Assembly: GCA_020051845.1 (NCBI GenBank)
Contig: JAGVQG010000017.1
Location: 1 to 58,574 of the forward strand
From: an archaeon
GTDB taxonomy: Archaea; Nanobdellota; Nanobdellia; Woesearchaeales; ARS49
Direction of reading: 5' to 3'
DNA: 58,574 nt
How positions within the stretch are numbered: the stretch's first letter is position 1; each line of letters begins with the position of its first letter. The notes below the pieces were generated by a model, which was not told the origin of the DNA, made no database searches, and saw nothing but the letters and a program-made list of their open reading frames with translations. Shown here piece by piece: positions 10,464-45,972 of this stretch. A program made the translations under genes and the position numbers.

Positions 10464-10464
10464 G

Positions 10465-11875: not shown

Positions 11876-11917
11876 GGTCTTCTCCAGTCAGGTTTTGTAT
11901 ATAAATTTATTTTAAAT

Positions 11918-12775: not shown

Positions 12776-12781
12776 CGATAC

Positions 12782-13639
12782 TCAATATAACGTGTCGCAA
12801 GGCGGCCTCAGGTCTGATGGCCAACCATAAACCGCCGCGTTCGGCCTGTCCTTGTAAAACACACTAGTCAGCAGATCAGAGTCACCCTGCAGATATGTTA
12901 TGACCATATCATCCTTGAAAAGATAGATGTCATGGGCGTTCACATTCTCCTCGCGCCCGCCCTGGGTGCGCTCCTCGCCGACGATGTCCTTGTATACATA
13001 GGACATTATCACCGAATCATAGGAGCTGAACTTGGCCTCGAACTTCTCGCGCTCAGGACGCAGATAATCGAAATAGGTCCTACCATCATCCATCTTGGTG
13101 TCCTTCAAGTATTGGCCGAAGCCGTTGAAACCGACACCACCCACCTTCTTGAGGAAGCTCGGGTCGAAGTGCACGACGGCGCAGGTCACGCAGCGATTGC
13201 CGCTGTAGAGCGTGCGCGTCTTGAAAGGATTCTTCTTACCCTCACCCCAAACGCGCCAGCAGATAGCCATCTCCTGCGCCATGGAATATTTGGCCATCTC
13301 CATCAACACCTCGTTCTCAGAGGGCTTCTGGTTGCCCGACTTCTGCAGACGCCTCGCAGCAGTGCCTGTCGACAGGTATTTCTCGGGGGACTTCGTCCTT
13401 ATGCTGTTGCGGTAGACGCCATCATCCTTGATGATGATCATCTGCGTCGGGCACTGGATCGTGACAAGATTGCCTATGGCCGCTGTGCTGGCGGCATCGA
13501 CGGTCGCCTCGCAGGCCTGGATGTCGGTGCCTTTCTTGACCGAAGCCTCCAGGTTGTATTGCCAGGCGAACAATGCTATGGCTGTGACTGCCAAGATGAT
13601 GAGCCCGATAAGGAAAGGATGGACATAGCCCTGCCTCAT
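12782..13639 (-). CDS. 285-aa envelope protein, paralogue of 11918..12775
   Basis: MRQG/YVHPFLIGLIILAVTAIALFA. Shares the Cys/Trp block described for its neighbour. Confidence 0.65.
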   Translation of the reverse strand: MRQGYVHPFLIGLIILAVTAIALFAWQYNLEASVKKGTDIQACEATVDAASTAAIGNLVTIQCPTQMIIIKDDGVYRNSIRTKSPEKYLSTGTAARRLQKSGNQKPSENEVLMEMAKYSMAQEMAICWRVWGEGKKNPFKTRTLYSGNRCVTCAVVHFDPSFLKKVGGVGFNGFGQYLKDTKMDDGRTYFDYLRPEREKFEAKFSSYDSVIMSYVYKDIVGEERTQGGREENVNAHDIYLFKDDMVITYLQGDSDLLTSVFYKDRPNAAVYGWPSDLRPPCDTLY

Positions 13640-14953: not shown

Positions 14954-15868
14954 ATGCAAAGAAGCGTCATACGGCTAGCAGGCAAGACATTCGTCGTGAG
15001 CCTACCAAGCAAATGGTGCAAGGCAAACGGCGTGACCAAGGGAGCCTTGCTGGAAGTCACACCCCATGGAAGGACACTACTAGTGGGAAGCCAAGGACCC
15101 AGCCATGACAAGCTGAAGCTGGCCTACGACGGCCACGCTGACGGCATCAAACCCCTCCTCACATCAGCGTACAAACGAGGATATGACGAGATCGAACTCG
15201 GCATCGGACCGGGAATGATGCGGCAGATCCAACGCACCATCGATGAAGAACTGGTGGGATTCGAGATAATCAACCAGGGCAAAAGCCACTGCACGATCAG
15301 GACCGTGACGGACGAACGCGAGGAAGAATACGACCAGATAATGCAACGCTGCGTCCACATACTGGGCGACATGCTCGAAAGCGGGCTTTCTGCGCTCAAA
15401 TCCAAGAAATGGGCTGAACTCGAGGAATCGGCGCTCTCCGAGCGGACGCTCGACAAGCTCACAAACTTCGCAAAACGCGTGCTCAACAAGAAATTCAGCG
15501 GCGACGCAGATTTCGCTTTCAACTACGGAATCCTGCGCGGAATAGAACAGACATCGGACGTGCTCGAAAACACATATGTCACGTGGGCAAAAGCAGGCCA
15601 CGCGACACACGACGAGATCGTCTTGTTCGAGGATGTATGCAAGTACGCGAAGACACAACTCGCGCTGATCCAATCACGCTCGCTGACGCACCCTTCATCC
15701 GGCAAGAAAATACTACTGATGCAGGCAGCGGTGCTGATCGAGAAAGGCGGACACGGAGCTATCATCGGCCATCATCTAAGCGAAGCGATAAACGCGCTCG
15801 ACAACATGGCCGGCCAAGTCATAGGTCTCAGCCTAGGGCAGACCGCAACGAGCAAAGATAATCCTTAG
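14954..15868 (+). CDS. AbrB/SpoVT-domain plus PhoU-like helical-domain regulator
   Basis: N-terminus IRLAGKTFVVSLPSKWCKANGVTKGALLEV is a swapped-hairpin AbrB-type motif. The rest is helical with a PhoU-like pattern. The upstream region is AT-rich and multi-TATA. Confidence 0.6.
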   Translation: MQRSVIRLAGKTFVVSLPSKWCKANGVTKGALLEVTPHGRTLLVGSQGPSHDKLKLAYDGHADGIKPLLTSAYKRGYDEIELGIGPGMMRQIQRTIDEELVGFEIINQGKSHCTIRTVTDEREEEYDQIMQRCVHILGDMLESGLSALKSKKWAELEESALSERTLDKLTNFAKRVLNKKFSGDADFAFNYGILRGIEQTSDVLENTYVTWAKAGHATHDEIVLFEDVCKYAKTQLALIQSRSLTHPSSGKKILLMQAAVLIEKGGHGAIIGHHLSEAINALDNMAGQVIGLSLGQTATSKDNP

Positions 15869-18838: not shown

Positions 18839-19363
18839 TTATTGGCAAAGCTTCAGAACAAGAGTCAGTGTCTGACCGCCTATCGGACGAGGACGCGTTA
18901 TCTTCTGGAAACCTGCCGTGCACCCCCCAGGAGGGTTCTTGAACTCGATCTTCTGGTCGTTGATCTTCTCCTCTATCTCAAATACATACTTTCGGCCCCA
19001 GGTGTTGAGCGTGCTGTTGAGCATGTAGCCTATGGTCGCGTTCGCGTAAGCGCAACTGTCGCCGGCAGGGATGACAATGGTCGCGACACCTGCTTTCGTG
19101 ACCTCGATCTCGTCGCACTGGAAGGAAGCGCCTGTCGCACAGTCCTTGAGCATAACCGAAAGCGGCACGCCCTTGCAGACCATCGTAGTCTCAAGCATCG
19201 TGTCGAGAAGGTTCGCTCCGAGCTGCACGTCACGCGCGTTCTGCACAGGATTCTCCTGCACGTTGAAGAAAAAGAAACGCAATGCGAGAAGGATGCCCAT
19301 CAGCACGATGACCATTATTATCGCAAGCCCGAGAAGCTCCATCTGTGCGCGCCTATTTCGCAT
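18839..19363 (-). CDS. prepilin-like protein, 174 aa
   Basis: MRNRRA/QMELLGLAIIMVIVLMGILLAL. 11-nt overlap with the upstream gene. Confidence 0.68.
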   Translation of the reverse strand: MRNRRAQMELLGLAIIMVIVLMGILLALRFFFFNVQENPVQNARDVQLGANLLDTMLETTMVCKGVPLSVMLKDCATGASFQCDEIEVTKAGVATIVIPAGDSCAYANATIGYMLNSTLNTWGRKYVFEIEEKINDQKIEFKNPPGGCTAGFQKITRPRPIGGQTLTLVLKLCQ

Positions 19364-19880
19364 ATTGAGTCACCTCAATGTAGCCGAAAGCGTAGGTGCC
19401 TTCTGTAGACTGGCTGCCTGTGGCATTGAAAATAAGTATGGGAACCTGCATCTTGCTCGACTCCTTGTATTTAGGCAATGTATTGTTGTAGAGCGTGACC
19501 TGCCTGACGGCTGTCGGTGGAACGGCATTACGAGCGTAGATCTGCGTGACAGTGACCGTACTCCAACCGAAAACAGGGAAGTAAAGCGCGGAGATCGCGG
19601 AAGACTGAGGATTACTGTCATCAAGGACCGACGCGAACGCGCTCAACTTGCTCGCATCTATGCAAGCCTCCTCCTGGATGCCGGCTATGGCGCAATCCAG
19701 CTCTGGAAGGAATGAAATCTTCTGCGCCAGGCCGAACATGTGAAGCTGGCTCGCGCGCGCCAACTCCCTGTTCACCGACGTCTTCTGGATGCCGAAATAG
19801 AAGTTCACGCCGAAGATAAGCAGGAAGGCGAACACCACCATCACGGCTATCGACTCGAAGAGCTTTATCTGGGCTTTCAT
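19353..19880 (-). CDS. prepilin-like protein, 175 aa
   Basis: MKA/QIKLFESIAVMVVFAFLLIFGV. Confidence 0.68.
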   Translation of the reverse strand: MKAQIKLFESIAVMVVFAFLLIFGVNFYFGIQKTSVNRELARASQLHMFGLAQKISFLPELDCAIAGIQEEACIDASKLSAFASVLDDSNPQSSAISALYFPVFGWSTVTVTQIYARNAVPPTAVRQVTLYNNTLPKYKESSKMQVPILIFNATGSQSTEGTYAFGYIEVTQYAK

Positions 19881-19881: not shown

Positions 19882-20967
19882 TCAGTACACCGTCGGACAA
19901 CTCAGACGCAACAACTTCTCATTGGAGGCGGCAAGGCTGTCCGCCGCTATCTGGAGTATATTGAAGTCAGGGGAGCTTTCGTCGACCACGGTCTTATGGG
20001 CGAACTTGATGATCGTCGGCAAAGGACCGTCATTCGCAGCGTCAAAACCACCCTCCAGATCGTTCGTCTTGGTGATGACCGTGTACTCTGCACCACACGC
20101 GGGGTTTTTTGTGGTGTCTTTCAGTTCGACAGCCCTTTGCTGATACACCCTGCCCACACCCTCAAGACGCTTGAACGCCGTGATTGCATTGCACGAGTAA
20201 TCCTCCATGTCCTGCGCCATTATGGCGCCGAAAAGCATCTCGTCTCCGAAAAACGCAGTCATTATCGTCTGACCACTGTCGTCAACCGCGTTCTCCTTCT
20301 CGATCATGTTCTTGTTCCTCTTGTAGAACGTGAGATCGTTGGTGGAAGCGCTGACAACCACCACGTGGACATCGACGTCCTTGAACTTTGAGTTCATGAC
20401 GGTCTGGATGGCAGGCGCATCATTGCCGAGCGTCACGAAAACCACACGGCTGTATTTCTCGTTGGTCGCGTCCTTGACATCACTGATCTGCTCGAAACGC
20501 ACATCGGCAGGCATCGCCGCCTTTATCCGGTCAAGCACAGGATCGTTGCCGACCAGGTAAATCTTGACGAAATCATTTGTGATGAAGAGGAAGTTGGTGG
20601 CGCGGAAAGGCGCCTTCCAGTCAAGGGTCCAGAGCTTCGCGTCAGCGCCCTCGACGGTGTATGGCGAAAATATGGAACGATCGTTGAACGGGATGCTGAA
20701 GCGGCCGAACTTTATCGAACAAGAACAATCAGCACAATCGAAGTTAAGACCCAGCTTAGGCAAAGGCACTGTCTGGATCGTGTCCTTGGATTGGAGCGCG
20801 GCTGTCGTTATCGCGTCGAAGTCGTTCTGCAGACGTATCGCCGCCTTGTCCGCGGAAAGCTGGCGCTGAGTGTTGGCGACCTTGAAGAAAAGAGCGAGTA
20901 TGACAGCACCTGCTATGAGGACGAAGATCCAGTTGAACTGGACATCAAGCTGTGCCTTGCGCTTCAT
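19882..20967 (-). CDS. prepilin-like protein, about 361 aa
   Basis: [28 protein letters not shown]. The ATG at 20965-20967 forms an ATGA overlap with the upstream stop. An alternative ATG lies 6 nt upstream at 20973. Confidence 0.68.
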   Translation of the reverse strand: MKRKAQLDVQFNWIFVLIAGAVILALFFKVANTQRQLSADKAAIRLQNDFDAITTAALQSKDTIQTVPLPKLGLNFDCADCSCSIKFGRFSIPFNDRSIFSPYTVEGADAKLWTLDWKAPFRATNFLFITNDFVKIYLVGNDPVLDRIKAAMPADVRFEQISDVKDATNEKYSRVVFVTLGNDAPAIQTVMNSKFKDVDVHVVVVSASTNDLTFYKRNKNMIEKENAVDDSGQTIMTAFFGDEMLFGAIMAQDMEDYSCNAITAFKRLEGVGRVYQQRAVELKDTTKNPACGAEYTVITKTNDLEGGFDAANDGPLPTIIKFAHKTVVDESSPDFNILQIAADSLAASNEKLLRLSCPTVY

Positions 20968-21509
20968 TGCCATGGCGATACGCGCACCGCATTACCAAGC
21001 CCCTCAAGCCGCAATACCACCGTGCCTTGGTCGACAGGCTCGCAGAACCAGCGCTGGTCGCTCTGCTTTTCCGGATCGCTCGAAGCCTGGATGTCAGGAA
21101 GCAGTATGTTCTTCGGAGCGCTTGGCTCGAAGAAGACATTGTCGCCGCCGGTCTCATACACCTCATAGATCAGAGAAGCGTTCTCGGGCAGGCCTGCCAG
21201 CTCGGACATCTCATTGAATTGCGGCTTGCCCTTGACATCGACTTGCGGGTCCTTGTTGCCTGTGACGATGCAGATCTTCTTGTACCTCATCGGCAGCCCT
21301 GCGAGCTCGACCTTCTTCACAGAACCATAGCTCAGACTGATGCTCTTGACCTCGGACTTGAGCGTGCTCGTGAAATCGATGAACGCGACCTCGTTGCCGC
21401 GTTGACTGATCCCCTGGATCGCCTTGTATCCATAACCGAGGATCAGCACGAAGATTATACCCGCCAGGATCAGCACGAAAACCTGCCCTATGATCTGCGC
21501 TTTCCTCAT
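20964..21509 (-). CDS. prepilin-like protein, 181 aa
   Basis: [32 protein letters not shown] overlap with the stop of the giant gene. Confidence 0.68.
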
Positions 21510-24500
21510 TTCTTCCCTCCCTTGGGCTTCTGGATGATCTTGTTGAGCTTGACCTGAGCCATGGACTTGCCAGTGGCATAGGCCTCGACCTCGTGCTCGA
21601 GCTGGTCCTTATGCTGAGAATAGTATTTCGCCGTGATGCGCAGCTTCTTGAAAAGCTCCTCCGCATCTTTCGACGAGAGCTTACCAAGGCGCAGCAACCG
21701 CAGCTTCCTGAGCAGATCCTTACGGTCCTTCGCCGACAATTGCGACAGCGCGATGTTGCCCAGGTTCGCAAGGACATCCTCCTTTGTCTCGACCTTATTC
21801 TCATCGACCTTTGAACCTGGCTTGTTCATCCCGAACTCCGCCGCCAGCTTGCCGATCGCGCCCTTCTCTCCGAGCGGGCCTTTAACATGCATATGCTGGC
21901 CCTTGCCATCCTCGGCGATGCGCCTCTCGAGCTCCTTCAACTTGGAGAACTCCTCCTTCTCAGGCGCCTTGAGAGAATCAAGTGAGACGTAATCATCCTG
22001 CTTCTTGGAACCTGCTCCCGGTGTTCCGGCCACTGTCCTCTTCTGCTGCTGACCAATCCGCTGGGCGATGCGCGCACGCGCCTCCTGCAAGCGTTGCATG
22101 AGGTTCGTGGACAAACCACCCTCCTTGGCGGTCTTCTTGAACCTCTCAGGATGCCTCTTCTGGTATTCCTTGTAGCCGAAATAGCCACCCACAAGCAATG
22201 CCAACAAGACTATCAACAATATCCACAGCCAGAGCCAGGAAGTCGGATGGCTTGCCGGATCAAGAGGATCGGTGCCTGCCTCGACCTCGACACCATCATT
22301 GTAACCATCAAGGTCGGTGTCGGCGTTGTTGGGGTCGGTGCCTGCCTGCCATTCCTGCATGTTGGTAAGACCGTCACCGTCAGGATCGGCGTCTGCCGCG
22401 GCATCGCCGGAGCATTCGATCTTGTCGCCGCCGCCCACGAAGCCGTTCTTGAAACGCCAGGAATCAGGTATGTCGTCACCGCAGGAATGACGCTGGTCGA
22501 TCGAACAACCATCGGCGTCGACCTCGGCGCCCTTCGCAGTGCCAGGACACTTGTCCGTACCGTCAGGCACACCGTCGGCGTCACGGTCACCCTCGACACC
22601 GCAGGAAGCGTCGCCGGGCTCGCACTTGCGGCACACGTTGGCCCCACAGACAAGACCCTGGGCGCAGTCAGCGTCGATCAGGCAAGCCTGGCCCTCGATG
22701 CACTTGGAAGAGCAGGCGCCGCCGCAATCGACATCGGACTCTGTGCCGTCATGGACCGAGTTGAAACAGGGATTCGATTGGACGCAAATATTGTTGATGC
22801 AGGTGTTCGACTTGCAGTCCGCGCTCACCAGGCAGGCCTTGCCGATATCACACTTGGTCGAACAGGAGCTACCGCAGTCGACATCGGTCTCATTGCCGTT
22901 ACGCGTACCATCGGCGCAACCGACCGGAGCGCAACGCGAGACATTGCCCGTCTTCTTGCAATTCCTGCTCTTGCAGTCCGTGTTCACCTTGCACAGCTTG
23001 TTGTCGTCGCACTCCATACACTCGGCGCCGCAGTCGATGTCCGTCTCTGTGAACAACTCGAGCGCCTTGTTCTTGCAATGCGACGGAAGCTTGGAGAGGT
23101 TGATGGTCACGCCATTGCTGTCGTTGGCAGGACCCACCATGCCACCCTCGTTCTGCGGCTTTACCGTGAAGAAATAGGAAGCGCCCTCGGTGAGGTTGAG
23201 ATTGCGGCCAAGCTGGTCCTTAGTCAGATAGAACTTGCCACTGTTCGGCAGCCTGCCTTCGCAGTTGCTGTTCGAGGAATTCGTGCCGTTCATGCAGTCG
23301 ACAATGACCTTGCCGCCGGTCTTGTCCTTGACAGTGTAGAAGTACGCCGTGACAGCGGTCTCGTCGTCCTTGCCCTGCCATTCGGCCTGCAGCTTGTCAG
23401 GGAAGTAGCTTATCTCCTTGTCCTCGGACAAGGGCCCGTCGTCACTGACCTTGACCATGTAGGGCGCTGTGTTGTCTATGACAAAAAGGACGGTGATCTT
23501 GGCTGTCTGCGCCTCCTGAATGCCGCCGACATCGATGACCGCAGTGCAAGTGACGTCGATGGCATTCGGGCCAAGAGTCCTATTGACAAAGCGCCTCGTG
23601 TGGCCTATGCCGTCGGCAGAAGCCATCGGATCATAGTTGACTCCTGCGACACATGTGGCCTTCTTGTTGGTCTCGACACCGATATCCACTGTGGTGTTGC
23701 TGAACGCAGACTTTGTCCTACTGACCACGGTGAGCGTCTGGTTGAGGTCCATGGAGACAGAAGTCGCGCCGAAGACCGGGCCAAGAAGCGCCTCGTTGAA
23801 GCAGGCGACAGCGTACCACTGGGTCTGATTGACCTTCTTGAGCACAGCAACGCTGACATTCACGTACACGTTCTGAGATACGGTCGGTGATAGATTGAAG
23901 TTCGGGAACTCATTGGTGAATGTGGCGTAGAAGTCCTGTGCTGCCTTGCCACTGACATTGACCTGCGAAGGGCTGTCTATCTCCCTGTATTTGCAGAATA
24001 TGTTCTCATCACCCTGAACCTCCAATTTGGTCACGAGCTGACCGTCGGTGGTCTGGGTTATGGGATTGGGATTCGTTGTGACAAGCACAAGTTGAGGAGC
24101 GGTCAGATCGACCTTGAGAGAGCACTGCTTCTGGACGGAATTGCCGCTATCATCGTCCTTGCACCAGATGAAGATCGTCTTCGTGCCAGCATCCTCCTTG
24201 ATGCCATCATAATCTTTCTTGAGATGCTCGAAACCGTCAGCCGACTTCGTGGTGGTGTAGAGACCGTTGAAAGGCAATGATGCGCCTGTCGGAAGATCGG
24301 AGAAGCGGCAGTTGGAGGGTTCACTCGTCTCGAAGATCACGTCGAACGGCGATATCTTCGAGGAGACGCCGAAGCGCGGCTGCTTCAGGCCGACAAAAGG
24401 ACTGCCTGCTGATGTCGAGAACTTGCTCGAACCATAGCCCTCGTTCCCTGCAAGGTCCATCGCCTTGGCCGAAAGCATCTTGCGACCACCCTGCAAAGTC

Positions 24501-27076
24501 AAAGGCTTGAGCAGCCACACCTTAGCCGGTGGACCGCTCATAGACAACTGCGTGTCCTGCGGAGCGAAAAGGCCGCAGTTGGTGCCGAAAATCACCCACT
24601 CTGTCAATGTGAGCTGCTTGATCGTCACTGGCTCGCTCGCATTGACGCCCATCGTGATGCCAGACTCATTCGTCTTTGTCCCATCCTTCGGGATAAGCGT
24701 CAGCGACGGAGCGACTGTATCGACGTTGATCGTGATGGGCTGGGGATTGTCCAATGTCGCGCCCTTCGCGTTGGCCGCGTCGAAACCCAAGGTGTAGATG
24801 CCGTCAGGCAAAGGCGCGCTCGGTGATATGGAATAGCTCGTCGCCGAAGCAGTGACGGCAGGATCGGGCGACACCACAAGGCTCACGCCACCCGACGGAC
24901 CGCTCATCGCGGCCTTGGTCAACTTCACAGGCGAGACGAACGTGACAATGATCTTGAGTTGAGGAGCGCCGGACCTGCCACTGCCTGCGTTGGTGTACCA
25001 GGGGCCCTTATCCGGATACTGGGTTCCTGGCGAGACATTGATGCCCTTGATCGTCGGACCAAGGCAGCCCTCGCAGATCAGCAACGGGATGGTCCTGACA
25101 ACCTCCACATTGTAGCTCGGATCCTCGGTATAGTAACGAAGTTCATACTGGCCCTCGGTGAGATTGAATAATGTCGTGTCATCCTGGGCAGGATCATCGA
25201 CCACACCATCACCCATGCAAAGCAGGTTGTAGCCGGTCGACTTCCAACCGCTCTTGTCATCACGCACGCGGGCGTCTGTGCAATCCGTCGTGTCGCCCTT
25301 CGGACGCACGCAATACCACGTCAAATAATTATCCTTGAACATCGAACCGTCGCCGCACTCGATCTGCGCGGACTGATCCAAAGGCTTGCCCTGAACCGCG
25401 ACAGGCGACGCAGGAAGCACGCCGGAAATCTTGTCGACAAGGCGCGCCACTATGAAACTCGTCACGCCAGACTTGGTCTTCGACGTCAAAGCCGTCTGCG
25501 GCGGGTAGTAATCCTGCTCGCAGGCCTTCTGCAAAAGCGCCGTGCTCGCGCCAAGGCAATCCGCAAAGGTCGCACCATTCGGCCTGCCGTCCGCGTTCTT
25601 GTGACATGCGCCGTTTATCCAGTCGCACACAGGGATCTTGCAGATGTTGGACGTGCTCATCCTTGAAAGTGAATTGTCGGCGTTGATCGCGATGCCGCCC
25701 GCAGGACCGCCGCAATCAGGCTCCTTCGGGAAGATAGAACAATCAGCCTCGGCACAGCTCTTCGCGCTATCCAGCTCAGGGGTAGGACCTGGCACGAAGA
25801 AGCACATGTTGTCCTGGGTCGAGAGAGCTGACGCGACCTCGGGCGAGCATTTGTTGAACACATCATTGTAGGCGTCCTTGTTGGGCGCATTCTTGCTACC
25901 AGCCATGTTGCAAAGCGCGCAATTGCTCGACGTGGAATCCTTGCAGACGCCTACACCGAGACCCTCAAGACCAGGCACAGGGGACCAGGCACAGGTGCCC
26001 TTCAGACCGCATGGGTTCTTTCCGCACACGCGGCTCGACTTGTAATCATAGCACACCATCGACCCGTCGCACTTGTAGCATTCATCGCCAGAAGCTGATC
26101 CGCGGTCGAGGAAGCAATAGGTCGGAGTATCGACAGGACCCTCACAATTCTGTTCGTTGATGTTCAAGCCGAAGACGTCGCTCGACGCGGGCTTGCATTC
26201 GGAAGGCACGATGCATTTCACCGCCTCTGCGCCGCGCTTGAAACACTGTTTGTCAGGAGGACACTGCAAACCCTTGACCACGATGTTGAACGGATTGCAC
26301 GATATCGCGCCATTAAGCCTGTCGGAGAAAGCCAACTTCACGGCAGAATCATAGTCCTTGTTGAAAGTCACATCCTTGCCATAGGAATCCTTGTAGCCCT
26401 TGTCGACCAAGTAATTCTTGCGCTTGTCGTTGTCGAAATGCGCGGGCGAGAGGCAGAACTCCTGCTCGTCGAAGACATCAAGGCACTCGATGTCACCAAG
26501 CATGCCCTGGCCAGACACATCATTCGACCAGCCCTGGATGTAATGCGCCTTGACCTTGTAGATGTACTTCGTCTTCCAAAGCACGATCCTCTTGCCAGCA
26601 GTATCAAGACCAGAATCCTCAAAGTAAGAGTTAGTGGTATCGCCGATCTCCAAACAGTTGCTTCCTGCGATATCACAACGCGTGACACGCACATAATCAG
26701 GAGAACAGCTCGCGTCACCGGGTGACCACTCGATGCGCATGATGTCCTTGCCCTTGACGCCACGCACGCGCACGTCCTTGACATCGGGCTTTCCTGCCGC
26801 ACAGGCAGGAAGCGTGGGAGATATCGACTGGCAAAGCGTGATGCAGTCATCGCCGATCTTCTCCGGCGTGGCTATGTCAGGATAATTCACGCAGTCGCCG
26901 GTGCCGCACTCGCCAGCAGGCCTGAAAGCGTCGCTGCACGCCGAGCTCGACTGAGCATTGCAGCAGCAGACAGGACCATCAGTGGTCTGCGCAGACGCAG
27001 GAACGACGAGGAGCGCGACAAGCGCGATCACCAGCAGGAAGCCGAGCTCAATTGAGCGGCAAGAGCGACTTGGCAA
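21506..27076 (-). CDS. giant (1856 aa) Cys-rich type-I membrane surface protein / putative adhesin
   Basis: TTG start 7 nt after GGAGGTG, with no in-frame ATG before the signal peptide ([22 protein letters not shown]). FN3/Ig-like segments with D-x-T/V-A-P linkers ([23 protein letters not shown]). Three Cys modules, Asp-rich TSP3-like repeats, [25 protein letters not shown] and a 221-aa Lys/Glu-rich tail. Confidence 0.85.
22241..22600 (-). repeat. Asp-rich thrombospondin-type-3-like (Ca-binding) repeats encoded just outside the TM segment
   Basis: [61 protein letters not shown]. Confidence 0.6.
22601..23077 (-). repeat. three tandem ~45-50 aa Cys-rich modules (protein-level repeat)
   Basis: [31 protein letters not shown] / [32 protein letters not shown] / [33 protein letters not shown]. 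Confidence 0.7.
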
Positions 27077-28442
27077 AGATCTCCACCTCCTGGTCGTCGA
27101 TGTTATGTGGAACGTAAATCTCCTTCTCTTCTGCCATTATGTAAACGGAAACCTTCTGGAGAGCGCTCTTCTCAGACGGGCTGAACTTGTGCTTGTCTCC
27201 ACCAGCGACAAGATCCGTGCCGCCAGCGCGCATCGTCATGAAAACTTCATCCTCATCAGGATCGAAGGAGACAATCTCTCCCAGACTTGAATTTGCGGCA
27301 TAGTTTGTAGGAGGCCACACGCCACCTTTTGGATGAGGAACTGTGCCATCGCAATCATCAACATTGAAAACCAAATGGTCGCCTTCCCTAGTGACGTTCG
27401 CCGCGTAACCACTCTGTAACGCGCAGAGCTGGATTTGAAGCGTGGTAGGGTTCGGAATGTACGACAAAGCAGGAGGCCTGTTGTGACGCATCACACGGAA
27501 CTCGTACGGATTGCCATCTATCTTGCTCGCCGCGTCCGTGAAAACGAGCAAATCATCGCCTGCAATGTTGTCCGACGCGTTGCGGACGATGCTGACATGG
27601 ATGGCATCACCGAAATAGGTCAAAGGATCATATGTTATGTCGGTCGCGTCAGCGTCGATGACCTGCTTGGTGACATTATGCACCTTCTTGAGACGCACAG
27701 GCATCTTCGCGGTGAAAGTAGGCAATGCTGTCTCGCCAGAACCGTCCTTCATCTTGACGACCAAAGACGCGTTGAGAATGAAAGTCGTGTCCTCGTCATT
27801 GAGCATGACCTGGACAACCGAGTGCGGCGGCGTTATGTCGACCTGGACGAACTTGGACCAGTCGAGGCAGCTGTCGACGTTCTTCTGTACAGCGGCGACA
27901 AGCTGGCTCTCCATCGAAGGCTGGGCAGGCTGCAGAGTCGTGCCGTTAAGGACAGGCAACCGGTTGATGCCATAGTAACCCTTGTAGGTACGACCGGAAG
28001 AACAACCCGGAGCGGCAGGGATCGGCTCCATCGATTCTTTGCAGAATGGAAAACTCTTCCAAGGATAGGTCGGCACGTACGATGAATACAAACCCTCACC
28101 CTCTGGAGCGTAGAGCCCGTACCACACATCGAAATCATCGTAATTGAGAGAGTTCACACCAGATATGAGATCGCCGCGCGGAGTAAGGCCGCCCTGATTC
28201 TCGGAATAAAGGACACCACCCTGCATGCCGATCTGCTTGACAGCGTCATTGGCAGCGGCCTTCAGGCAGCCGGTCACATATTCCCTGATAGGTTGAACGA
28301 TCTCCCGAGAGAGCTGAACGCCCTTGACAGCGTCTGTCTGGCGAGTCTCGGATTCCGAATTGACGATATAGTACCCCACTCCTGTCATGATTACCACAAC
28401 CAGCCCTACGATGATCATCAACGAGAGTTGTCCTTGCTTCAT
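27048..28442 (-). CDS. prepilin-like large protein, 464 aa
   Basis: [29 protein letters not shown] overlap with the upstream gene. Its 3' end overlaps the TTG start of the giant gene by 29 nt. Confidence 0.7.
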
Positions 28443-29962
28443 GGCCGCAGCTTCGCCGTGAGATCGCGCCAGGCGCCAATTATCGTTGTCTGGTCTGCGT
28501 TACGGAGCTGCGTGATAATTACATCCGATGACTGACCGGGCGGCGTGCAGGTCAGATCCTTGGTGTTGCTGGTGATGAAACCGCAGATGTTGAAAGTGGC
28601 GCCTGCGTAGTGCACGCCAATGACATCCTTGAAGTCATCCGCGGGTTGCTGCTTCTTCGTGTCATTCAATGGCTGCACTGCGAGATGATACTCTATCACT
28701 CCCCAGAGCTCCTTGCCTGCGTTCTGCGCAGCGTAGAATACATTGATGTTGTTCCTTTTACCGAAGAACGCGAAATCCTCACCACTCGTACCTGGAGCGG
28801 GCTCCCTTGCCTGGATTATGACATCCTTCTGCTTGAGAAGCTGCTGGTTAAGCGCATCCATGGCAGAGCCGCTGGCAGGAGTGACACCCTGCGAGTACAG
28901 GACGATGTTAAGGTCCTTGTTGTAGTAGATGTTCGTGCTGACACCCTGCGAGCATTTGGTGAACGTGTCAGAACCGCCGACCACATTGTCGCAGACGGTC
29001 TTCAAAAGATTCTTGTCGATGACCTTGATGAATGTGTTGTCGTCATTGATATTGTTGTTGAGCGAGGTACCGACAAGAGAGACGCCACCGACGCGCAACA
29101 GGCAGACGTTGTTGTGGCAGGAACCGGTCTTTCCGCCCGATGTCATCTTGCAATCGTTTATGACTGCCGGGCTGTCCTGGCCGAACACGCTGTCTATCGT
29201 GTCGCAGAATATCGAATACGGCTGACCTGCGAAAGACTGTTCTTTTATACGCAGCATAAGCAACGCGATGAATTTGGTCCTTGTCGTCCAAGTGCCGGTC
29301 TCATCGCACAGGTGGTCTCCGATGAACTGCCGCGACTTGATGCACGCGGGCGGAGTGGTGCTGTACTTCTCAGGCATGTCATTGTTCTGGATGTTCTGCA
29401 CGCCTGACGTCGGGAAGACAAGACCTGGCTTCACGACACAACGCTTGACAGTGTCTGTCTCAGGGCAATAGCCAAGATAGTCGTTGTCCCAGGTGGTCTT
29501 CGGAATCAATGCCTTCCAATCACCGTCGATGCAACGATAACCCTTGCCGCCAGCCATCACAGTGGAAGATTTCGGATCATTATACGCCGTGTCAAGGCTC
29601 TGGTTGCTTATGATATCGGTGCCGTTCCAGCAAGTGCCCACATCACAGCAACTGGCCTGCATGCCTTCCGGCGCCGGTGGAATGGTGAAACCCACTGGCG
29701 CTGAACATTCGTGCATGACCGGCTTCGTGGTCTTTTCCCACATCACCCAATTACCATTGGGCGAGCACCAGTAAGCGTTGCCTGACGTGCTCGAAGTGCT
29801 CGCGCCAGAACCAGAAATTGACGTAGGACCAAGAACGTCGCACTTGCTCTTGCCGACCACCAAAGGCCCGCCAGGCTTGGTGGGATCGGTCTCGGCTGCT
29901 ATTACGGCGACCGCAAGAACCGCAATGATTGACAAAACCAGGAGCGCTTTGGAGATTCTCAT
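28439..29962 (-). CDS. secreted Cys-rich protein, about 507 aa
   Basis: The track start is TTG. The ATG at 29960-29962 makes an ATGA overlap with the upstream stop. Sec-type signal MRISKALLVLSIIAVLAVAVIAAETD, with many Cys. Confidence 0.72.
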   Translation of the reverse strand: MRISKALLVLSIIAVLAVAVIAAETDPTKPGGPLVVGKSKCDVLGPTSISGSGASTSSTSGNAYWCSPNGNWVMWEKTTKPVMHECSAPVGFTIPPAPEGMQASCCDVGTCWNGTDIISNQSLDTAYNDPKSSTVMAGGKGYRCIDGDWKALIPKTTWDNDYLGYCPETDTVKRCVVKPGLVFPTSGVQNIQNNDMPEKYSTTPPACIKSRQFIGDHLCDETGTWTTRTKFIALLMLRIKEQSFAGQPYSIFCDTIDSVFGQDSPAVINDCKMTSGGKTGSCHNNVCLLRVGGVSLVGTSLNNNINDDNTFIKVIDKNLLKTVCDNVVGGSDTFTKCSQGVSTNIYYNKDLNIVLYSQGVTPASGSAMDALNQQLLKQKDVIIQAREPAPGTSGEDFAFFGKRNNINVFYAAQNAGKELWGVIEYHLAVQPLNDTKKQQPADDFKDVIGVHYAGATFNICGFITSNTKDLTCTPPGQSSDVIITQLRNADQTTIIGAWRDLTAKLRP

Positions 29963-32913
29963 TTTGTAGGTGCCACCTTCCAAACATAACCCATCGGTTG
30001 TAGCCTACCATCGCCCACAACCTGCTGACCCTCACAGGCAGGATCCGTGCTATCATAGTGATCCTTGCCATCCACAGTCACACAACTGTACAACGCGACA
30101 GCAGCGCCGCCAATCTCAGGCGTGGCACTGGCCAGCAAGTAACCAAGCGTGGTGCGCTTGGGCTTGTCTGCTTGCAGCGAATCAGCCACATTGGTGGTTG
30201 TCATGTAATCATTCACGCTGTCCTTGACGAAAACAGAGTAAAGCGTCTTGCCCGCCAGTGTCGTACCGCCAACCTTGGCAGCCTTCGGAATGTACCACTT
30301 CGCCTCTTCAGTGAAACCCGTCTTGCATGGCGTCGTCGTGGTCCTGTGGTCATAACTGGTACTGAAACACCTGTACAGCGTAGCGACGCCGGTCATCGGC
30401 TTGCCCGTGCCTGCTGCTGTAGCTGTACCCATCTTGTCAGGCTTTGTGGGCGTCTTGCATTTTATGCACTCTATTTTTACCTCGATTGCACTCTTAATGC
30501 TAGTTTTGGTAATGCCTTCTGTCGGAGGCAATGCCTGCGCGCCACAAGAGCATGCAGGAACCTTCTTCAACATGTCGATGACACTGCCCGTGCCACCAAT
30601 TTTCCAAAGTTCACTTGACTGAGTGGTCGTCGCCTTCGCAGACAGATATTCATTGCCAGTCATCCAGTTATAGCACTTCACATAATCGAATATCGCCTTT
30701 GCGGCCTTGTCCTTTGGAGCGACTCCATTGAACACCTTCTTGTCGACGATACGGAAGCATTTCTTGTTAGCAGTGGGCTTTAGCTTACCCTCCTTATCAT
30801 AGCAGGACTTGAGCTTTGGATCATCCGTGGCAGGAAGCAATACCGTTTCGAGGTCCTTGGCGTTATCACCAAGATCATCGGGCCTGATAGCAGCATAGCA
30901 TCCTGTCTTCTGCACCTTCAATACCGCTTTAAAGTAGGCTGTAACAGAACCATCATCATTATTCTTGACGCACGTGTCGACTGAACAATTCGGGGTGAGT
31001 GGGTTAATGTCGGCGCATTTCTTGCCATTCTTCAATTCAGTATTGATGAGCTCATAACGAGTATTAGGATCAGTAGCTGGCGCAGTACCACACTTATACT
31101 TGGGCAGCACACGCGCGCAATGCGCCTCGACTTTCTCTGACTCGACGCAGGACCTGCCTGTGGGACAGGCTGTCGCGATTGGATTGCACTTCCCATCATA
31201 TTCTACAAATCCTGTCTTATCGGCGTTGCACGTCGCCTTGCCCGGTATGCACCAGGTCCTGCTCAGAACAGTATTACCTGCCATGTTGCAGCCGTAGAAA
31301 GTGCCGTTGTAGTTCATGATCGAACGGTTTGTGAGCGTGCCACCGGCGTTAATGAAGAGCTTGTCATAGGGAATGCGCTCGCCGACGAAGCGCCAGATGG
31401 CAGCCGCTGTCGATGACGCCGGGTTCTGGGTGCCGACACCCTGTATGGGCGTGCTGTTCCAGCAACCTGCAGGAGGCACCAAAGCCTTCCATTCAATCTT
31501 TTGACTGTCTGGATTTAGGAAGGTCAACGCAGGCTCGTTGTAATACTGGCCTGGCCTGAAACCGCAACAATGCGTTCCTGTCCATTGTATCTTCGGGTCG
31601 GAATTAGACGCGGCTTCGCACGTCTCCTGATCATCGATATCAGACATCCACGCGCCGCTCTCTGTGCAGAAGTATTCGGTCTCGCCGTCTTCTGAAGAGT
31701 TGACTGTCTCGCCTGTTTTGTATGTCTTCTTGAAACCAGCATCACCGCCGATGGTGGCAATAGTCGTCCAAGCCTTCTTGGGATCCCCACCATAGCATTC
31801 CACGGCCGCAACAGCGGGCGGGTTCGCCAGTGGGTTGGCCATCGCGCAAGCGAAACCATGCATCACGGGCTTGGCACCGGTCGCCTGGTAAGCGGAGAAA
31901 TCCTCAGATTTGGCGTTTGCCGCCATCTCTATCTCAAGCTTCTGAGGATCGCCTGTCGCGCCCTCGAAGTCAACCAGTGAAGGACCGCAATAGCGGGGAC
32001 CGGCATCGGTGTAGACCGCAGTGCCTTCCCATTTCTTCTCGCCGTCGATGAATTTCACATTTGCCACGTTGCCCATCTCTTTCTTTGTCAGCCATTGCCA
32101 CTTGCCACTCGCATCCACAATGCACATCGCCTCGAAGTCCTTCGTGCGGTCATCCGGATGATCAGAATCAACTGCAGTGACGACATTCATGAAGTCGCCG
32201 CCTGCCTGAGGATCGTTGCCGCAGCACCTGAATTCGAGATCTTCATCAGTGGTGTTTATCCAAGCGCCATTATTGTTCGTGCAGACGTTCGGGACACTGT
32301 CGGAATCATTCATGAAATCATACTCGTATGAGACGTGGAAACAAGACTGTGTAGAAATGGTCGTCTTGTCGTTGAAGAATGATATCGTGTTAGGACCGGA
32401 TTGGGTTATCAACGGCTTTTTGGTCACTGGATCGACAAGAGGGAAGTTGACAGCTGCTGGCTCTTTAGACGCGCCTGTCACAGAACCCAATGGAATAGTA
32501 CCCCACAATAAAGTGAGTTTGCCAGAACCAGATACGACCAAGTCTATCTTGGCATCGACATTCTGGGGCTCGCCCTTTTTCTTCTCATCTGTCGGGACCT
32601 CATAAGCAGGGAGAGGAATGCTGAAATCACCACCGGATATGCAACCACAGGCCAACTTCTTCTTGCATGCAGTCAATGACCTGCCTTGATCGGCAAGCTG
32701 GCTCGCGTAAGATTCAGGATTCTTCCATTCGACAGGACCCCAATAGCCGCAAACGAAATGCGTGCCTTTACCATCAGCCAAATCAGACCCTGTGCAACCG
32801 GCTTTCAGGTTCTCAATCCCACTACCAACCTTTTGCGCATCCTTAGCAATAACACCAAAAGACAGCACTATCAGGGCAAGAACACAGAACAGCACGCGGA
32901 AGCCAATCTTCAT
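29959..32913 (-). CDS. secreted Cys-rich protein, 984 aa, first gene of the operon
   Basis: Signal peptide MKIGFRVLFCVLALIVLSFGVIAKDA. Very Cys-rich with no C-terminal TM. The C-terminus carries three LY...DH...GY repeats. Confidence 0.8.
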   Translation of the reverse strand: MKIGFRVLFCVLALIVLSFGVIAKDAQKVGSGIENLKAGCTGSDLADGKGTHFVCGYWGPVEWKNPESYASQLADQGRSLTACKKKLACGCISGGDFSIPLPAYEVPTDEKKKGEPQNVDAKIDLVVSGSGKLTLLWGTIPLGSVTGASKEPAAVNFPLVDPVTKKPLITQSGPNTISFFNDKTTISTQSCFHVSYEYDFMNDSDSVPNVCTNNNGAWINTTDEDLEFRCCGNDPQAGGDFMNVVTAVDSDHPDDRTKDFEAMCIVDASGKWQWLTKKEMGNVANVKFIDGEKKWEGTAVYTDAGPRYCGPSLVDFEGATGDPQKLEIEMAANAKSEDFSAYQATGAKPVMHGFACAMANPLANPPAVAAVECYGGDPKKAWTTIATIGGDAGFKKTYKTGETVNSSEDGETEYFCTESGAWMSDIDDQETCEAASNSDPKIQWTGTHCCGFRPGQYYNEPALTFLNPDSQKIEWKALVPPAGCWNSTPIQGVGTQNPASSTAAAIWRFVGERIPYDKLFINAGGTLTNRSIMNYNGTFYGCNMAGNTVLSRTWCIPGKATCNADKTGFVEYDGKCNPIATACPTGRSCVESEKVEAHCARVLPKYKCGTAPATDPNTRYELINTELKNGKKCADINPLTPNCSVDTCVKNNDDGSVTAYFKAVLKVQKTGCYAAIRPDDLGDNAKDLETVLLPATDDPKLKSCYDKEGKLKPTANKKCFRIVDKKVFNGVAPKDKAAKAIFDYVKCYNWMTGNEYLSAKATTTQSSELWKIGGTGSVIDMLKKVPACSCGAQALPPTEGITKTSIKSAIEVKIECIKCKTPTKPDKMGTATAAGTGKPMTGVATLYRCFSTSYDHRTTTTPCKTGFTEEAKWYIPKAAKVGGTTLAGKTLYSVFVKDSVNDYMTTTNVADSLQADKPKRTTLGYLLASATPEIGGAAVALYSCVTVDGKDHYDSTDPACEGQQVVGDGRLQPMGYVWKVAPTK
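29962..30393 (-). repeat. three C-terminal LY(R)-x-DH-x-T ... GY(V/L) repeats (DUF5648-type as far as I recall)
   Basis: LYRCFSTSYDHRTTTT...WYI / LYSVFVKDSVNDYMTTT...LGYLL / LYSCVTVDGKDHYDSTD...MGYVW. Confidence 0.5.
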
Positions 32914-32934
32914 ACCCCTTTTTCCTCAACAACC

Positions 32935-32944
32935 GTATATTAAG
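32935..32944 (-). promoter_or_regulatory. TATA box (CTTAATATAC on minus strand) for the giant-adhesin operon
   Basis: About 27 nt upstream of the 32913 ATG. Confidence 0.5.
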
Positions 32945-32962
32945 CAAGACAAGTGAAGAAAG

Positions 32963-32972
32963 CTTTTTATAT
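32963..32972 (+). promoter_or_regulatory. TATA box (CTTTTTATAT) for the divergent 32994 gene
   Basis: About 26 nt upstream of the ATG. Confidence 0.5.
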
Positions 32973-32993
32973 CTTTCTGCGTCCATCTATAAT

Positions 32994-33500
32994 ATGTCGC
33001 ATTCAAAAAGAGGTGTCAATAGATTAAACGTTCTTCTTTTGACCTTCGGGGTGCTGGCCTTGGTCCTGATAGGAATAATGGTTTTCTATACCTGGAAAGC
33101 GCCTGCCGAGAAAAAAGCCGAGCTAAGACGAGAATGCGCGTCCTCATTCGACGACAAAGTATACCACATGACGACGATGCAGCAATGCAATGACGCCAAC
33201 CTGTGGAAGGAAGCCTTGACGAAATGCAAGGCCTGGGTGAGCGGCAACACCGACTACTGCATCGGCCTCGCGCCGACAGACACTTCCTGGTGCAATGCCA
33301 TGGCCACAAAGGACCCTGCGAAGTGCGAAGGCACAGGAAGCGCGGCGAACTACTGCAAAGCGTTCGTGACAAGGAACCCTGCGCTCTGCGACGGCCTGGT
33401 CGGAACAGACTATGAATACTCGTGCGCGGTCACGATCAAAGGCGACTATAAAGCGGTAGACGCCGACGCCGCTGAATTATGCGGTGAGGACACTGTCTAG
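32994..33500 (+). CDS. prepilin-like/anchored protein with Cys-pair repeats, 168 aa
   Basis: MSHSKRG/VNRLNVLLLTFGVLALVLIGIMVF. Repeated C-x(6-10)-C units (KCKAWVSGNTDYC, WCNAMATKDPAKC, YCKAFVTRNPALC). Confidence 0.65.
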   Translation: MSHSKRGVNRLNVLLLTFGVLALVLIGIMVFYTWKAPAEKKAELRRECASSFDDKVYHMTTMQQCNDANLWKEALTKCKAWVSGNTDYCIGLAPTDTSWCNAMATKDPAKCEGTGSAANYCKAFVTRNPALCDGLVGTDYEYSCAVTIKGDYKAVDADAAELCGEDTV

Positions 33501-44909: not shown

Positions 44910-44934
44910 GAAATGTTTATATAAAAAGGCGATA

Positions 44935-45882: not shown

Positions 45883-45972
45883 CAAGTGCAGGGCTTTGAA
45901 CCCGCACGATTTCTTTGTAATGACGAATTCCATAGCGAAACATTTAAAAGAGACTTTGCTCTTGGTCGTCTT

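Follow-up and report, generated by a model that had tools for sequence, protein, structure and literature searches.

The three overlapping genes described here (g1, g2 and g3; 984, 507 and 464 aa) open a cluster on the minus strand of a 58,574-nt stretch of archaeal DNA, called the window below, and run directly into the gene for a 1856-aa giant protein. Alignments with fused and split relatives show that g1 and g2 derive from a single ancestral protein, Cys-rich, exported by Sec and ~1000–1500 aa long. The three genes are tentatively read, at somewhat less than even confidence, as the front end of a conserved DPANN cell-surface operon that would combine a disulfide-rich head, a pilin-like adaptor and an anchor, probably for adhesion or host contact.

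The layout of the cluster is summarized in Table 1. A sequence-only reading of this DNA had described three large genes joined by ATGA overlaps into the giant, and both the ORFs and the 4-nt overlaps were recovered at the same positions (29959/29962 between g1 and g2, 28439/28442 between g2 and g3). The g2 protein has 507 aa when counted from its ATG and 514 aa if an upstream TTG is used. The giant starts at a TTG that is preceded, 7 nt upstream, by the SD sequence GGAGGTG, and the first 29 nt of its gene lie within the end of g3. The earlier reading had also proposed a unit of 14 kb, nine genes and about 4800 aa. The length holds, but the tightly packed unit (32913 to 18839; 14.1 kb) contains eight genes and 4704 aa, and the small genes downstream of the giant number four (g5–g8) rather than five. 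A ninth gene, g9 (15828–18773; 981 aa), follows g8 after a gap of 65 nt, is syntenic in relatives and extends the unit to 17.1 kb; it may have a promoter of its own. Coding-strand T5 runs are absent inside g1–g3, and Rfam and tRNA scans of the window were empty. The ORFs do not appear by chance: homologues of all of them lie in the same order on other metagenome contigs. The notion of a single co-oriented, overlapping string of genes with extracellular products is supported, and the g2–g3 ATGA junction is kept with the gene order in many relatives.

Table 1. Features of the cluster and its upstream region in the window (positions are those of the window).
Feature	Position	Strand	Basis
g1: 984-aa Sec-secreted protein, 42 Cys; N-terminal piece of the putative split head protein	29959..32913	-	ORF, ATG start, signal peptide
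g1 conserved core, ~residues 206-555	31249..32298	-	alignment A4, core HMM
g1 C-terminal repeats, ~residues 841-984	29962..30393	-	three copies of LYxC..DH..T..C.G....GY; related to DUF5648-type
g2: 507-aa Sec-secreted protein, 19 Cys; C-terminal piece of the putative split head protein, its best conserved part	28439..29962	-	44% identity to the L020 fusion, family HMM
g3: 464-aa pilin-like protein, class III-type N-terminus, ~330-aa conserved module	27048..28442	-	homologues P0012-P0016, L026-L049
giant: 1856-aa type I membrane protein	21506..27076	-	homologues after g3 in other loci
g5: 181-aa pilin-like protein	20964..21509	-	orthologues at the same position in 8-9 loci
g6: 363-aa pilin-like protein	19882..20973	-	homologue alignments
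g7: 175-aa pilin-like protein, MKA/QIKLFE...	19353..19880	-	invariant Q4, K6, F8, E9
g8: 174-aa pilin-like protein, RRA/QMELLGLAII...	18839..19363	-	invariant Q7, E9 and four Cys
g9: 981-aa membrane protein, C-terminal kinase-like (APH-type) region	15828..18773	-	65-nt gap after g8; alignment to L029
SD-like stretch GAGGAAAAAGGGGT, directly 5' of the g1 start	32914..32927	-	matching motif in relatives
TATA-like box TTAATATA, 23-30 nt upstream of the g1 ATG	32936..32943	-	seen in the window
palindromic TATA element AGAAAG-ATATAAAAAG-CTTTCT(TCA), common to g1 and the divergent 168-aa gene	32954..32978	.	candidate bidirectional promoter, function inferred
divergent gene: 168-aa N-terminally anchored protein, 6% Cys, promoter region common with g1	32994..33500	+	ORF

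The g1 and g2 proteins begin with n-, h- and c-regions typical of Sec signal peptides, with small residues at -3/-1 (VIA/K in g1, VIA/A in g2) and predicted cleavage at MKIGFRVLFCVLALIVLSFGVIA/KD and MRISKALLVLSIIAVLAVAVIA/AE, respectively. Their sole hydrophobic windows are residues 1–27 of g1 and 1–28 of g2, and neither protein has a C-terminal hydrophobic tail or another TM segment. By inspection and hydropathy, on which the signal-peptide assignment is based, both fit the class of Sec-dependent secreted proteins without an anchor, in agreement with what had been proposed for the first two proteins of the operon. Cysteine makes up 4.27% of g1 and 3.75% of g2, against a figure of 1.05% for 20 housekeeping proteins that the contig also encodes. 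The roughly fourfold enrichment is thus real, while the earlier label "extremely Cys-rich" is generous.

The common origin of g1 and g2 is apparent from their relatives. Residues 1–978 of g1 align, with 30% identity, to residues 1–950 of a single 1472-aa protein in locus L020, and g2 is 44% identical to residues 980–1472 of the same protein. The two parts are likewise fused in L024/25, L030/40, L035, L036/37 and L043. L026 breaks the chain at the point used in the window; there, too, the two genes overlap by ATGA and the second piece has gained a signal peptide. In six further loci (L022, L029, L033, L034, L038, L039), the split lies elsewhere, near position 62 of the g2 HMM. In such split relatives, each piece carries its own signal peptide. 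A g1-core HMM found the gene upstream of g3 in L020, L026, L029, L033, L034, L035, L036/37 and L038, and in 17 distinct loci the gene immediately preceding g3 matches the g2 family HMM; the window and seven further loci have an ATGA overlap between this gene and g3. A word-indexed homology search with g1 was empty, which proved to be a false negative, and it was an exhaustive phmmer search together with contig look-ups that found the L020 fusion; even the exhaustive search gave only 28 matches in 1.84 billion proteins. The shared ancestry of the two genes had been overlooked in the sequence-only reading.

The core of g1 contains 11 invariant cysteines and the motifs RCCG(N/D)D, W(Q/K)W, GPRYCGP, WTG(T/S)(H/R)CCG and NGTF(Y/H)xC (alignment A4). 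About 20 of the phmmer matches cover only the C-terminal repeats (E down to 4e-13). In this respect, g1 may be akin to the DUF5648 repeat proteins: its last ~140 residues form three repeats that retrieve bacterial proteins, three of which (P0024, P0027, P0030) match Pfam PF18885. Unlike them, g1 itself remained below Pfam significance for PF18885 in a direct hmmscan. DUF5648 is a family without a known function, so the likeness explains nothing yet about g1. The predicted model of g1 has a pLDDT of 43.5 and gave weak Foldseek matches to jelly-roll coat proteins only (best E 4.7e-3, TM ≤ 0.45), which may at most hint at a beta-sandwich domain and do not suggest a viral relationship. A toxin, enzyme or metal-binding family was found in neither g1 nor g2 by Pfam, NCBIfam and PDB profile searches, and no Pfam match was obtained for g1, g2 or the homologues P0019–P0023.

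The third protein had been described as prepilin-like, and its N-terminus confirms this. In g3 and in g5–g8, a short, positively charged leader ending in [KR]-[GAS] is followed by ~20 hydrophobic residues, as judged by inspection, which corresponds to the class III type; g7 starts with MKA/QIKLFESIAVMVVF... and g8 with RRA/QMELLGLAIIMVIV... The junction of [KR][GAS] with Q or a hydrophobic residue is kept in all aligned homologues of the five families. In particular, eight homologues of g3 show no variation in Q or the hydrophobic stretch, and the further invariant features of the family comprise Q5, two QGG motifs, PxYP, FP and NRPPAL. The AF2 model of g3 shows a helix (residues 2–74) followed by beta-strands, with a confident alpha/beta core at 170–330 and a mean pLDDT of only 58.7, and it had no Foldseek match at E ≤ 0.07. 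Pilin profiles (Pfam DUF361/Class_IIIsignal, TIGR02537) gave no significant match to g3 or g5–g8, the nearest being TIGR02537 with g5 only (E 0.5), and Pfam returned nothing for these proteins at E ≤ 0.1. The family profiles searched against PDB sequences, which include solved pilins, gave nothing below E 0.29. Five loci (L042, L044, L045, L047, L049) encode the g3 module in one chain with a Cys-rich stretch of ~700 aa that is unrelated to it; the fused proteins match g3 with an hhalign probability of 100% over their first 370 aa. The idea that the extension of the L042 type is a relative of g1 or g2 was rejected after a profile–profile test without any relationship.

No match to g1–g3 was found in Pfam, NCBIfam or PDB sequences, in line with the earlier statement that no enzymatic domain could be recognized, and the profiles of all seven families (g1 core, g2, g3, g5–g8) were also without a match in PDB sequences. 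Structure prediction with Foldseek, proposed earlier as a check, yielded low-confidence models of g3 and g1 without a match at E ≤ 0.001; lectin or adhesin domains were not identified. An S-layer family was matched in Pfam and NCBIfam by none of g1, g2, g3 and the giant, nor did any other characterized envelope family turn up; such a hit is what the sequence-only reading had named as evidence against itself.

The giant carries a signal peptide, a CCC motif, 87 cysteines, Ig-like and TSP3 repeats, 18 N-glycosylation sequons, a TM segment (1609–1637) and a cytoplasmic tail of ~220 aa. Its homologues (1690–2770 aa) follow g3 in at least 13 loci. At the g9 position, the proteins of L029 and L037 match Pfam APH (E 6e-12 and 1e-7), and that of L038 contains a PD40 beta-propeller. 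The g9 of the window has no Pfam match itself; its residues 672–904 align with the APH region of L029, including KDPHPENW...AIDF.

The order of the cluster in related metagenome loci is a g1/g2-like Cys-rich gene or genes, g3, the giant, four small pilin-like genes and a membrane kinase-like gene. It is kept in at least eight loci whose GC content ranges from 29% to 62%, so that the comparison of synteny, suggested earlier, turned out in favor of a conserved gene order. One JGI sample, to which the Ga0247727 contigs belong, contains six versions of the cluster. A housekeeping neighborhood (PheS-PheT ... RNase P p30) is common to the window, L020, L029, L036 and L038. Judged from these loci, the cluster is a conserved lineage module in a core-genome neighborhood and not an extravagance of one genome. 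The earlier reading overlooked this lineage-wide conservation. The contig carries archaeal eRF1, RNase P p30, TrmB and PheRS, and the closest relatives of its PheT belong to Woesearchaeota, Nanoarchaeota and Pacearchaeota MAGs with at most 50% identity; on these markers, the source is a DPANN archaeon of the Woesearchaeota/Nanoarchaeota type. In the nearest GTDB species representatives (45–50% PheT identity), the cluster was not found within 10 kb of PheT. A scan of viral contigs with g3 was empty, and the idea of a mobile element or provirus was therefore dropped for want of viral relatives. Literature searches found no description of this cluster.

The region upstream of g1 bears on the start of the transcript. 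A TATA box 27 nt upstream of g1 had been taken to imply a leaderless transcript. The box is present, and a similar one (CAATATAA) occurs in L020, but it is absent at -27 in the relative L026, and the leaderless inference is not supported. An A-rich GAGG motif of the AAAAGAGG type lies 6–8 nt before the g1-like start in L020, L033, L034, L036 and L038; in L026, its distance from the called start is 2 nt. Further upstream, the palindromic TATA element is located 22–29 nt from the ATG of the divergent gene (32994) and 51–58 nt from the ATG of g1. The element is identical at 25 of 25 nt in L020 (5510–5534), despite flanking proteins at 30–45% identity, and with a similar one in L026 it is kept in the window and both relatives. 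A counterpart of the divergent gene (154–189 aa, 6–7% Cys) has the same position in L020, L026, L029, L033, L036 and L038. The conserved SD-like motif, the upstream palindromic TATA and the non-conserved -27 box together favor a g1 transcript with a predicted 5' leader of ~25–30 nt and an SD site. A scan for bacterial-type promoters and terminators, which is unsuited to archaea, gave the same counts as shuffled sequence.

In the proposed mechanism, g1 and g2 would be exported by Sec, stabilized by disulfides and, having once been domains of a single chain, associated with one another. They may dock on g3, which together with g5–g8 could form either a short stalk resembling a type IV filament or a pilin complex embedded in the membrane, and in this way keep the Cys-rich head outside the cell. 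The giant would serve as a membrane anchor with a cytoplasmic tail. Such an assembly may serve adhesion or contact, with either a host cell or a surface as the partner, much as bacterial minor pilins present PilY1-type adhesins, and engagement may be signaled by the kinase-like protein. That g1 and g2 have split and fused repeatedly, and that the g3 module is found fused to other Cys-rich regions, points to parts that are likely to be in physical contact. For the cluster as a whole, a role in adhesion or host contact is what we infer; the neighborhood of conserved housekeeping genes suits a constitutive part of the envelope no less than an adhesin.

The last point is also the starting point of a different explanation, in which the cluster is a housekeeping envelope scaffold, with the giant as a membrane-anchored S-layer or stalk protein, g1 and g2 as canopy or lattice partners and the pilin-like proteins as anchors only. 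Besides the core-genome neighborhood that the window shares with L020, L029, L036 and L038, it draws on the giant, whose signal peptide, Ig-like domains, 18 sequons and C-terminal TM segment resemble those of proposed DPANN S-layer or anchoring proteins, and on the lack of an assembly ATPase nearby. An S-layer family, however, was not matched, five pilin-like partners are to our knowledge not needed by S-layer proteins, and the length and architecture of g1/g2 vary strongly from relative to relative (340–1470 aa), a trait of interaction modules more than of lattice proteins. The scaffold is considered rather doubtful.

It is less probable still that g1 and g2 leave the cell in soluble form, for example as a metal or ligand binder, a toxin or an effector aimed at hosts or competitors, pushed out of or through the envelope by a T2SS-like pseudopilus. 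Tethering rather than release is suggested by another lineage, in which the g3 module and a Cys-rich region form one protein; additionally, a single-membrane archaeon has no outer membrane to cross, and the families expected of such factors were not matched in g1/g2. These points have to be set against the Sec signal peptides without an anchor, the five pilin-like proteins, a number also found in T2SS pseudopili and Com pili, the Cys-rich neighbors in the distant cluster L023 that match the Cu-binding MopE family, and the relationship of the g1 repeats to DUF5648-type repeats of secreted bacterial proteins. The fused 1472-aa version in L020 could also mean that the split of g1 and g2 is an artefact, or that a frameshift or nonsense mutation has left a decaying pseudogene. 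This is hardly credible and can be regarded as refuted in practice: g2 opens with a full, newly gained signal peptide precisely where the ATGA overlap lies, L026 preserves this arrangement at an identity of just 37–41%, other lineages split the chain elsewhere and again with own signal peptides, and the cysteines stay invariant.

The preferred reading, a pilin-borne Cys-rich head with an anchor, can be compared with several known systems. In the Methanococcus maripaludis Epd system, or archaeal type IV filament system 1, several co-transcribed proteins resemble those of the window in that a short, charged leader with [GA] at -1 precedes Q at +1 and a hydrophobic helix; its cluster also includes accessory non-pilin proteins with adhesin-like domains. 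Szabo et al. reportedly set out in 2007 a +1 Q rule for pilins cut by EppA. System 1 occurs in DPANN (bioRxiv 10.64898/2026.04.22.720090). The cluster differs from it in that matches to DUF361/TIGR02537 are lacking, the pilin-like proteins are larger (160–464 aa) and form five separate conserved families, and the unit includes a giant membrane protein and a kinase-like protein. It also differs in its machinery, as an assembly ATPase, platform protein or prepilin peptidase was found neither on the 58.6-kb contig nor within 10 kb of the cluster in relatives; the sole hint is a sub-threshold Peptidase_A24 match (21 bits, cutoff 26.5) that adjoins the distant g2-like cluster in L023.

In bacteria, a large Sec-exported non-pilin protein rides on minor pilins. 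For the type IVa minor-pilin/PilY1 tip and the GspH-I-J-K tip of T2SS pseudopili, as in the cluster, four to five pilin-like proteins are encoded alongside a large, Sec-exported, anchorless non-pilin protein. The likeness is one of gene-set logic only: homology to the beta-propeller of PilY1 or Neisseria PilC was found in g1/g2 or P0019–P0023 neither by Pfam nor by PDB profile searches. In archaea, subsystem 4A/B is reported to have an adhesin remotely similar to PilY. Type IV pilins with extra modules have been described as a modular-pilin principle (PMC8179133, PMC9934059). Like Streptococcus sanguinis PilB and PilC with their adhesin or lectin modules, g3 joins a pilin-like N-terminus to extra globular domains, and the ~700-aa Cys-rich region on the g3 module in the five loci named above is of the same kind; in contrast, the modules here are novel and Cys-rich, come from an archaeon and not a Gram-positive bacterium, and show no sequence or detected fold similarity. 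For DPANN, S-layer or anchoring proteins have been proposed (NEQ300, MJ1_0160/MJ1_0707; bioRxiv 10.1101/2023.10.27.564410). These and SlaA/SlaB resemble the giant as large, glycosylatable, extracellular Ig-like proteins, one of them with a C-terminal TM anchor, but they have no homology to the cluster proteins, whose Cys content is far higher. As regards gene content, we know of no S-layer locus with pilin-like or kinase-like partners.

Woesearchaeota-type DPANN are abundant, uncultured and presumed to be attached to other cells, and we know of no attachment structure in them. The cluster, with its pilin-like proteins, Cys-rich modules, giant anchor and kinase-like sensor, supplies concrete candidates for such a structure, and it adds no fewer than seven new families of proteins (g1 core, g2, g3, g5–g8) without Pfam, NCBIfam or PDB relatives. 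The widest version of the idea, a lineage-wide surface machine of these archaea in which a five-pilin stalk carries the g1/g2 head, the giant ties it to the cell and a receptor-kinase-like protein monitors it as part of a host-holding organelle, is unlikely but conceivable. If true, it would be an organelle by which uncultured episymbionts recognize and hold on to their hosts.

Eight genes, g1 to g8, form a tight unit of 14.1 kb that encodes 4704 aa. The sequence-only reading had described a 14-kb unit of nine genes with five genes behind the giant (the gene for the 1856-aa protein). The length holds, the gene number does not: four small genes, g5–g8, follow the giant, and the ninth, g9, lies a further 65 nt away. 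The ATGA overlaps that it had claimed are present as 4-nt overlaps at both named junctions, g1/g2 and g2/g3, and no T5 run occurs on the coding strand across g1–g3. The giant has a TTG start codon and shares 29 nt with the end of g3; 7 nt upstream of this codon, inside g3, lies a perfect GGAGGTG, a strong Shine-Dalgarno (SD) site. The genes g5–g8 overlap or nearly abut their neighbours, and all four products carry a hydrophobic stretch behind [KR]A/Q.

Coordinates of the operon and of related features in the window and in related contigs (L numbers)
Feature	Location	Strand	Remarks
g1	29959-32913	minus	984 aa
g2	28439-29962	minus	507 aa counted from ATG
g3	27048-28442	minus	464 aa
giant	21506-27076	minus	1856 aa, after g3
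g5	20964-21509	minus	small gene after giant
g6	19882-20973	minus	small gene
g7	19353-19880	minus	small gene
g8	18839-19363	minus	small gene
g9 (cluster-closing gene)	15828-18773	minus	ninth gene; membrane protein
Cluster-closing gene in relatives	L029 19002-21182; L037 12604-14189; L038 18931-21002		membrane protein
Palindromic element (AGAAAGATATAAAAAGCTTTCTTCA)	window 32954-32978; L020 5510-5534; L026 about 1497-1519		25 nt
g3 fusions	L042 238-3465; L044 9992-13018; L045 1681-5286; L047 3917-7201; L049 94-3543		
Second run of ORFs	window 7473-13639	minus	six or seven ORFs, 173-324 aa
Third surface cluster	window 40864-46932	plus	
Homologues of its 403-aa protein	L001 1150-2409; L002 1994-3196; L003 4974-6182		beside Pelota/eRF1-like gene
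Distant g2-like cluster	L023 1-22574		includes P0018

The operon is flanked by genes for archaeal eRF1, RNase P p30, TrmB and both PheRS subunits. Among GTDB species representatives, PheT is best matched at no more than 50% identity by MAGs labelled Woesearchaeota, Nanoarchaeota or Pacearchaeota, and some top matches were deposited under “uncultured Methanosarcinales”. Given these archaeal flanks and distant PheT matches, the source organism is evidently a DPANN archaeon, and none of its sequenced relatives is close. Each operon protein is a singleton at 90% identity in a collection of 15 billion proteins.

The cluster is conserved. Homologues of g3 lie on contigs syntenic with the window, and a metagenome scan with the g3 alignment, onto whose hits all operon proteins were mapped, provided 24 additional loci. 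The order is (PheS-PheT ... RNase P p30), a divergent Cys-rich membrane protein of ~170 aa, one or more Cys-rich secreted proteins resembling the g1 core or g2, g3, the giant, g5, g6, g7, g8 and a membrane protein of 600–980 aa. A g2-like gene lies immediately upstream of g3 in 17 distinct loci, with the ATGA overlap between them in the window and 7 further loci, and the string from g3 to g8 is found in at least 8. The window, a complete contig of 58,574 bp, has a GC content of about 54%, and contigs with the cluster range from 29% to 62%, a large compositional divergence inside the clade that bears it (L026–L049 versus the window). Six versions come from one metagenome (Ga0247727 contigs).

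Sec signal peptides without a membrane anchor had been proposed for g1 and g2, and this is borne out: each has one hydrophobic segment, at its N-terminus and with a Sec-type c-region, and lacks further membrane segments. Cysteine makes up 4.27% of g1 and 3.75% of g2, compared with 1.05% for 20 housekeeping proteins encoded on the same contig. No Pfam or NCBIfam family matched g1, g2 or g3, and family profiles of g1–g3 and g5–g8 matched no PDB sequence. An exhaustive phmmer search of 1.84 billion representatives with g1 returned 28 proteins. Five are similar over a long stretch; in about 20, the match is confined to the last ~140 residues of g1, which consist of three repeats related to DUF5648-type repeats. 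The conserved core (residues ~206–555) holds 11 invariant cysteines. The predicted model of g1 (9 sequences, pLDDT 43.5) is mostly beta, with only weak jelly-roll matches.

The boundary between g1 and g2 is not fixed. In L020, one 1472-aa protein spans both (g1 in residues 1–950, g2 in 980–1472), joined by a Pro/Thr-rich linker, and an unsplit protein is also found in L024/25, L030/40, L035, L036/37 and L043. The split of the window recurs in L026, again with an ATGA overlap and a new signal peptide (MRRIISLLLFCALAASVVAQQ), at just 37–41% identity. A different break point is seen in L022, L029, L033, L034, L038 and L039: the upstream gene carries positions up to ~62 of the g2 family HMM at its C-terminal end, and the gene that follows begins at position ~62–65 with its own signal peptide. 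The existence of two different break points, with a signal peptide restored at each, speaks for repeated fission of a single functional unit and rules out a frameshift artefact. Thus, g1 and g2 are evidently one protein in two pieces, whose parts must still come together outside the cell.

The conserved module of g3 comprises its first ~330 residues, with a class III-type (prepilin-type) N-terminus and invariant QGG...QGG, PxYP...FP and NRPPAL. Its predicted model (6 sequences, pLDDT 58.7) has a helix at 2–74 and a confident alpha/beta core at 170–330; a Foldseek search with it found no match. In five loci (L042, L044, L045, L047 and L049), this module is fused to a Cys-rich region of ~700 aa (hhalign probability 100%) that is unrelated to g1/g2 in profile-profile comparison, and a giant again lies downstream. 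This region has its own motifs, HTCC and CSGxRGNIC; the lineage is of low GC and has no g1/g2-like gene upstream, and ribosomal protein genes adjoin the fusion in L044 and L047. The g3 protein would be a pilin-like adaptor for Cys-rich extracellular modules, either covalent (fusions) or non-covalent (g1/g2).

Homologues of the giant span 1690–2770 aa and carry CCC or CC right behind the signal peptide; the CCC motif of the window protein is kept in most of them. In Pfam and NCBIfam, the window protein has only TSP3 and weak Ig-like matches. Three Cys-rich repeats of ~45 aa and TSP3 calcium-binding repeats precede its transmembrane segment, and its cytoplasmic tail of ~220 aa is lysine/glutamate-rich. 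In L029 and L037, the last gene of the cluster encodes an APH/kinase-like domain; its counterpart in L038 encodes a PD40 propeller. The alignment of window g9 with this kinase region takes in the catalytic-loop-like KDPHPENW and AIDF. The kinase-like (APH/ABC1/Pkinase-type) domain is C-terminal, and the propeller of the one relative is extracellular. The product looks like a receptor kinase attached to a surface operon.

A leaderless g1 transcript had been deduced from TTAATATA, which is indeed present 23–30 nt upstream of the g1 ATG. A AAAAGAGG-type motif precedes the g1-like start by 6–8 nt in most of L020, L026, L033, L034, L036 and L038. Farther upstream, the window, L020 and L026 share a palindromic AGAAAG-TATA-CTTTCT element in the gap between the operon and the small divergent gene for a Cys-rich membrane protein; the divergent ATG is about 25 nt away and the g1 ATG about 55 nt. 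The element is identical in 25/25 nt between the window and L020, while the neighbouring proteins are merely 30–45% identical, and it is similar in L026. It resembles a bidirectional BRE/TATA promoter or a regulator site. Since motif and element are conserved, a g1 mRNA that has a leader and an SD site and is made from a bidirectional promoter is at least as likely as the leaderless one.

Other surface loci were also noted. The ORFs of the second run have N-termini resembling class III signal peptides (e.g., MKRG/ALWS..., DKRG/IEHQALLVGV..., MRQG/YVHPFLIGLII...), and Pfam matched none of them. The 403-aa protein of the third cluster has a class III-like N-terminus (NKRA/QGGSAATVIGIITLLF). Behind it come a 640-aa membrane protein, which contains an fn3-like domain, and three proteins whose N-termini are lipobox-like. 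In L023, the distant g2-like protein P0018 lies amid a giant of >2000 aa and several secreted Cys-rich proteins that match the Cu-binding MopE; a weak Peptidase_A24 match and a radical SAM/SPASM-HxsD pair adjoin them.

Beyond the observed export signals, gene coupling, conservation and pattern of fission and fusion, a mechanism can be proposed. The g1/g2 proteins would fold into a disulfide-rich extracellular head that docks on g3; g3 and g5–g8 would build either a short stalk similar to a type IV filament or a pilin complex embedded in the membrane; the giant would anchor the assembly and extend into the cytoplasm; and g9 may signal. In the logic of its gene set, the cluster is like bacterial minor pilins with PilY1 and archaeal Epd/system 1 clusters. 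Membership of either type is not established, because its pilin-like proteins matched no pilin profile and because neither the window contig nor the 10 kb around the cluster in relatives encodes an ATPase, platform protein or peptidase; the sole peptidase hint is the sub-threshold Peptidase_A24 match in L023. The strongest competing explanation is a constitutive envelope scaffold, which the core-genome position of the cluster and S-layer-like traits of the giant suggest. It is less likely that g1/g2 are a released Cys-rich factor.

No description of this gene cluster was found in the searchable literature. Many pilin-like and large surface proteins are already known from DPANN genomes, so this kind of system is familiar. 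What is new are seven protein families, the constant architecture that includes a giant anchor and a kinase-like gene, and the split-gene evidence. The cluster is real and conserved, and it represents an undescribed variant among pilin-associated surface systems, with the putative function proposed above.
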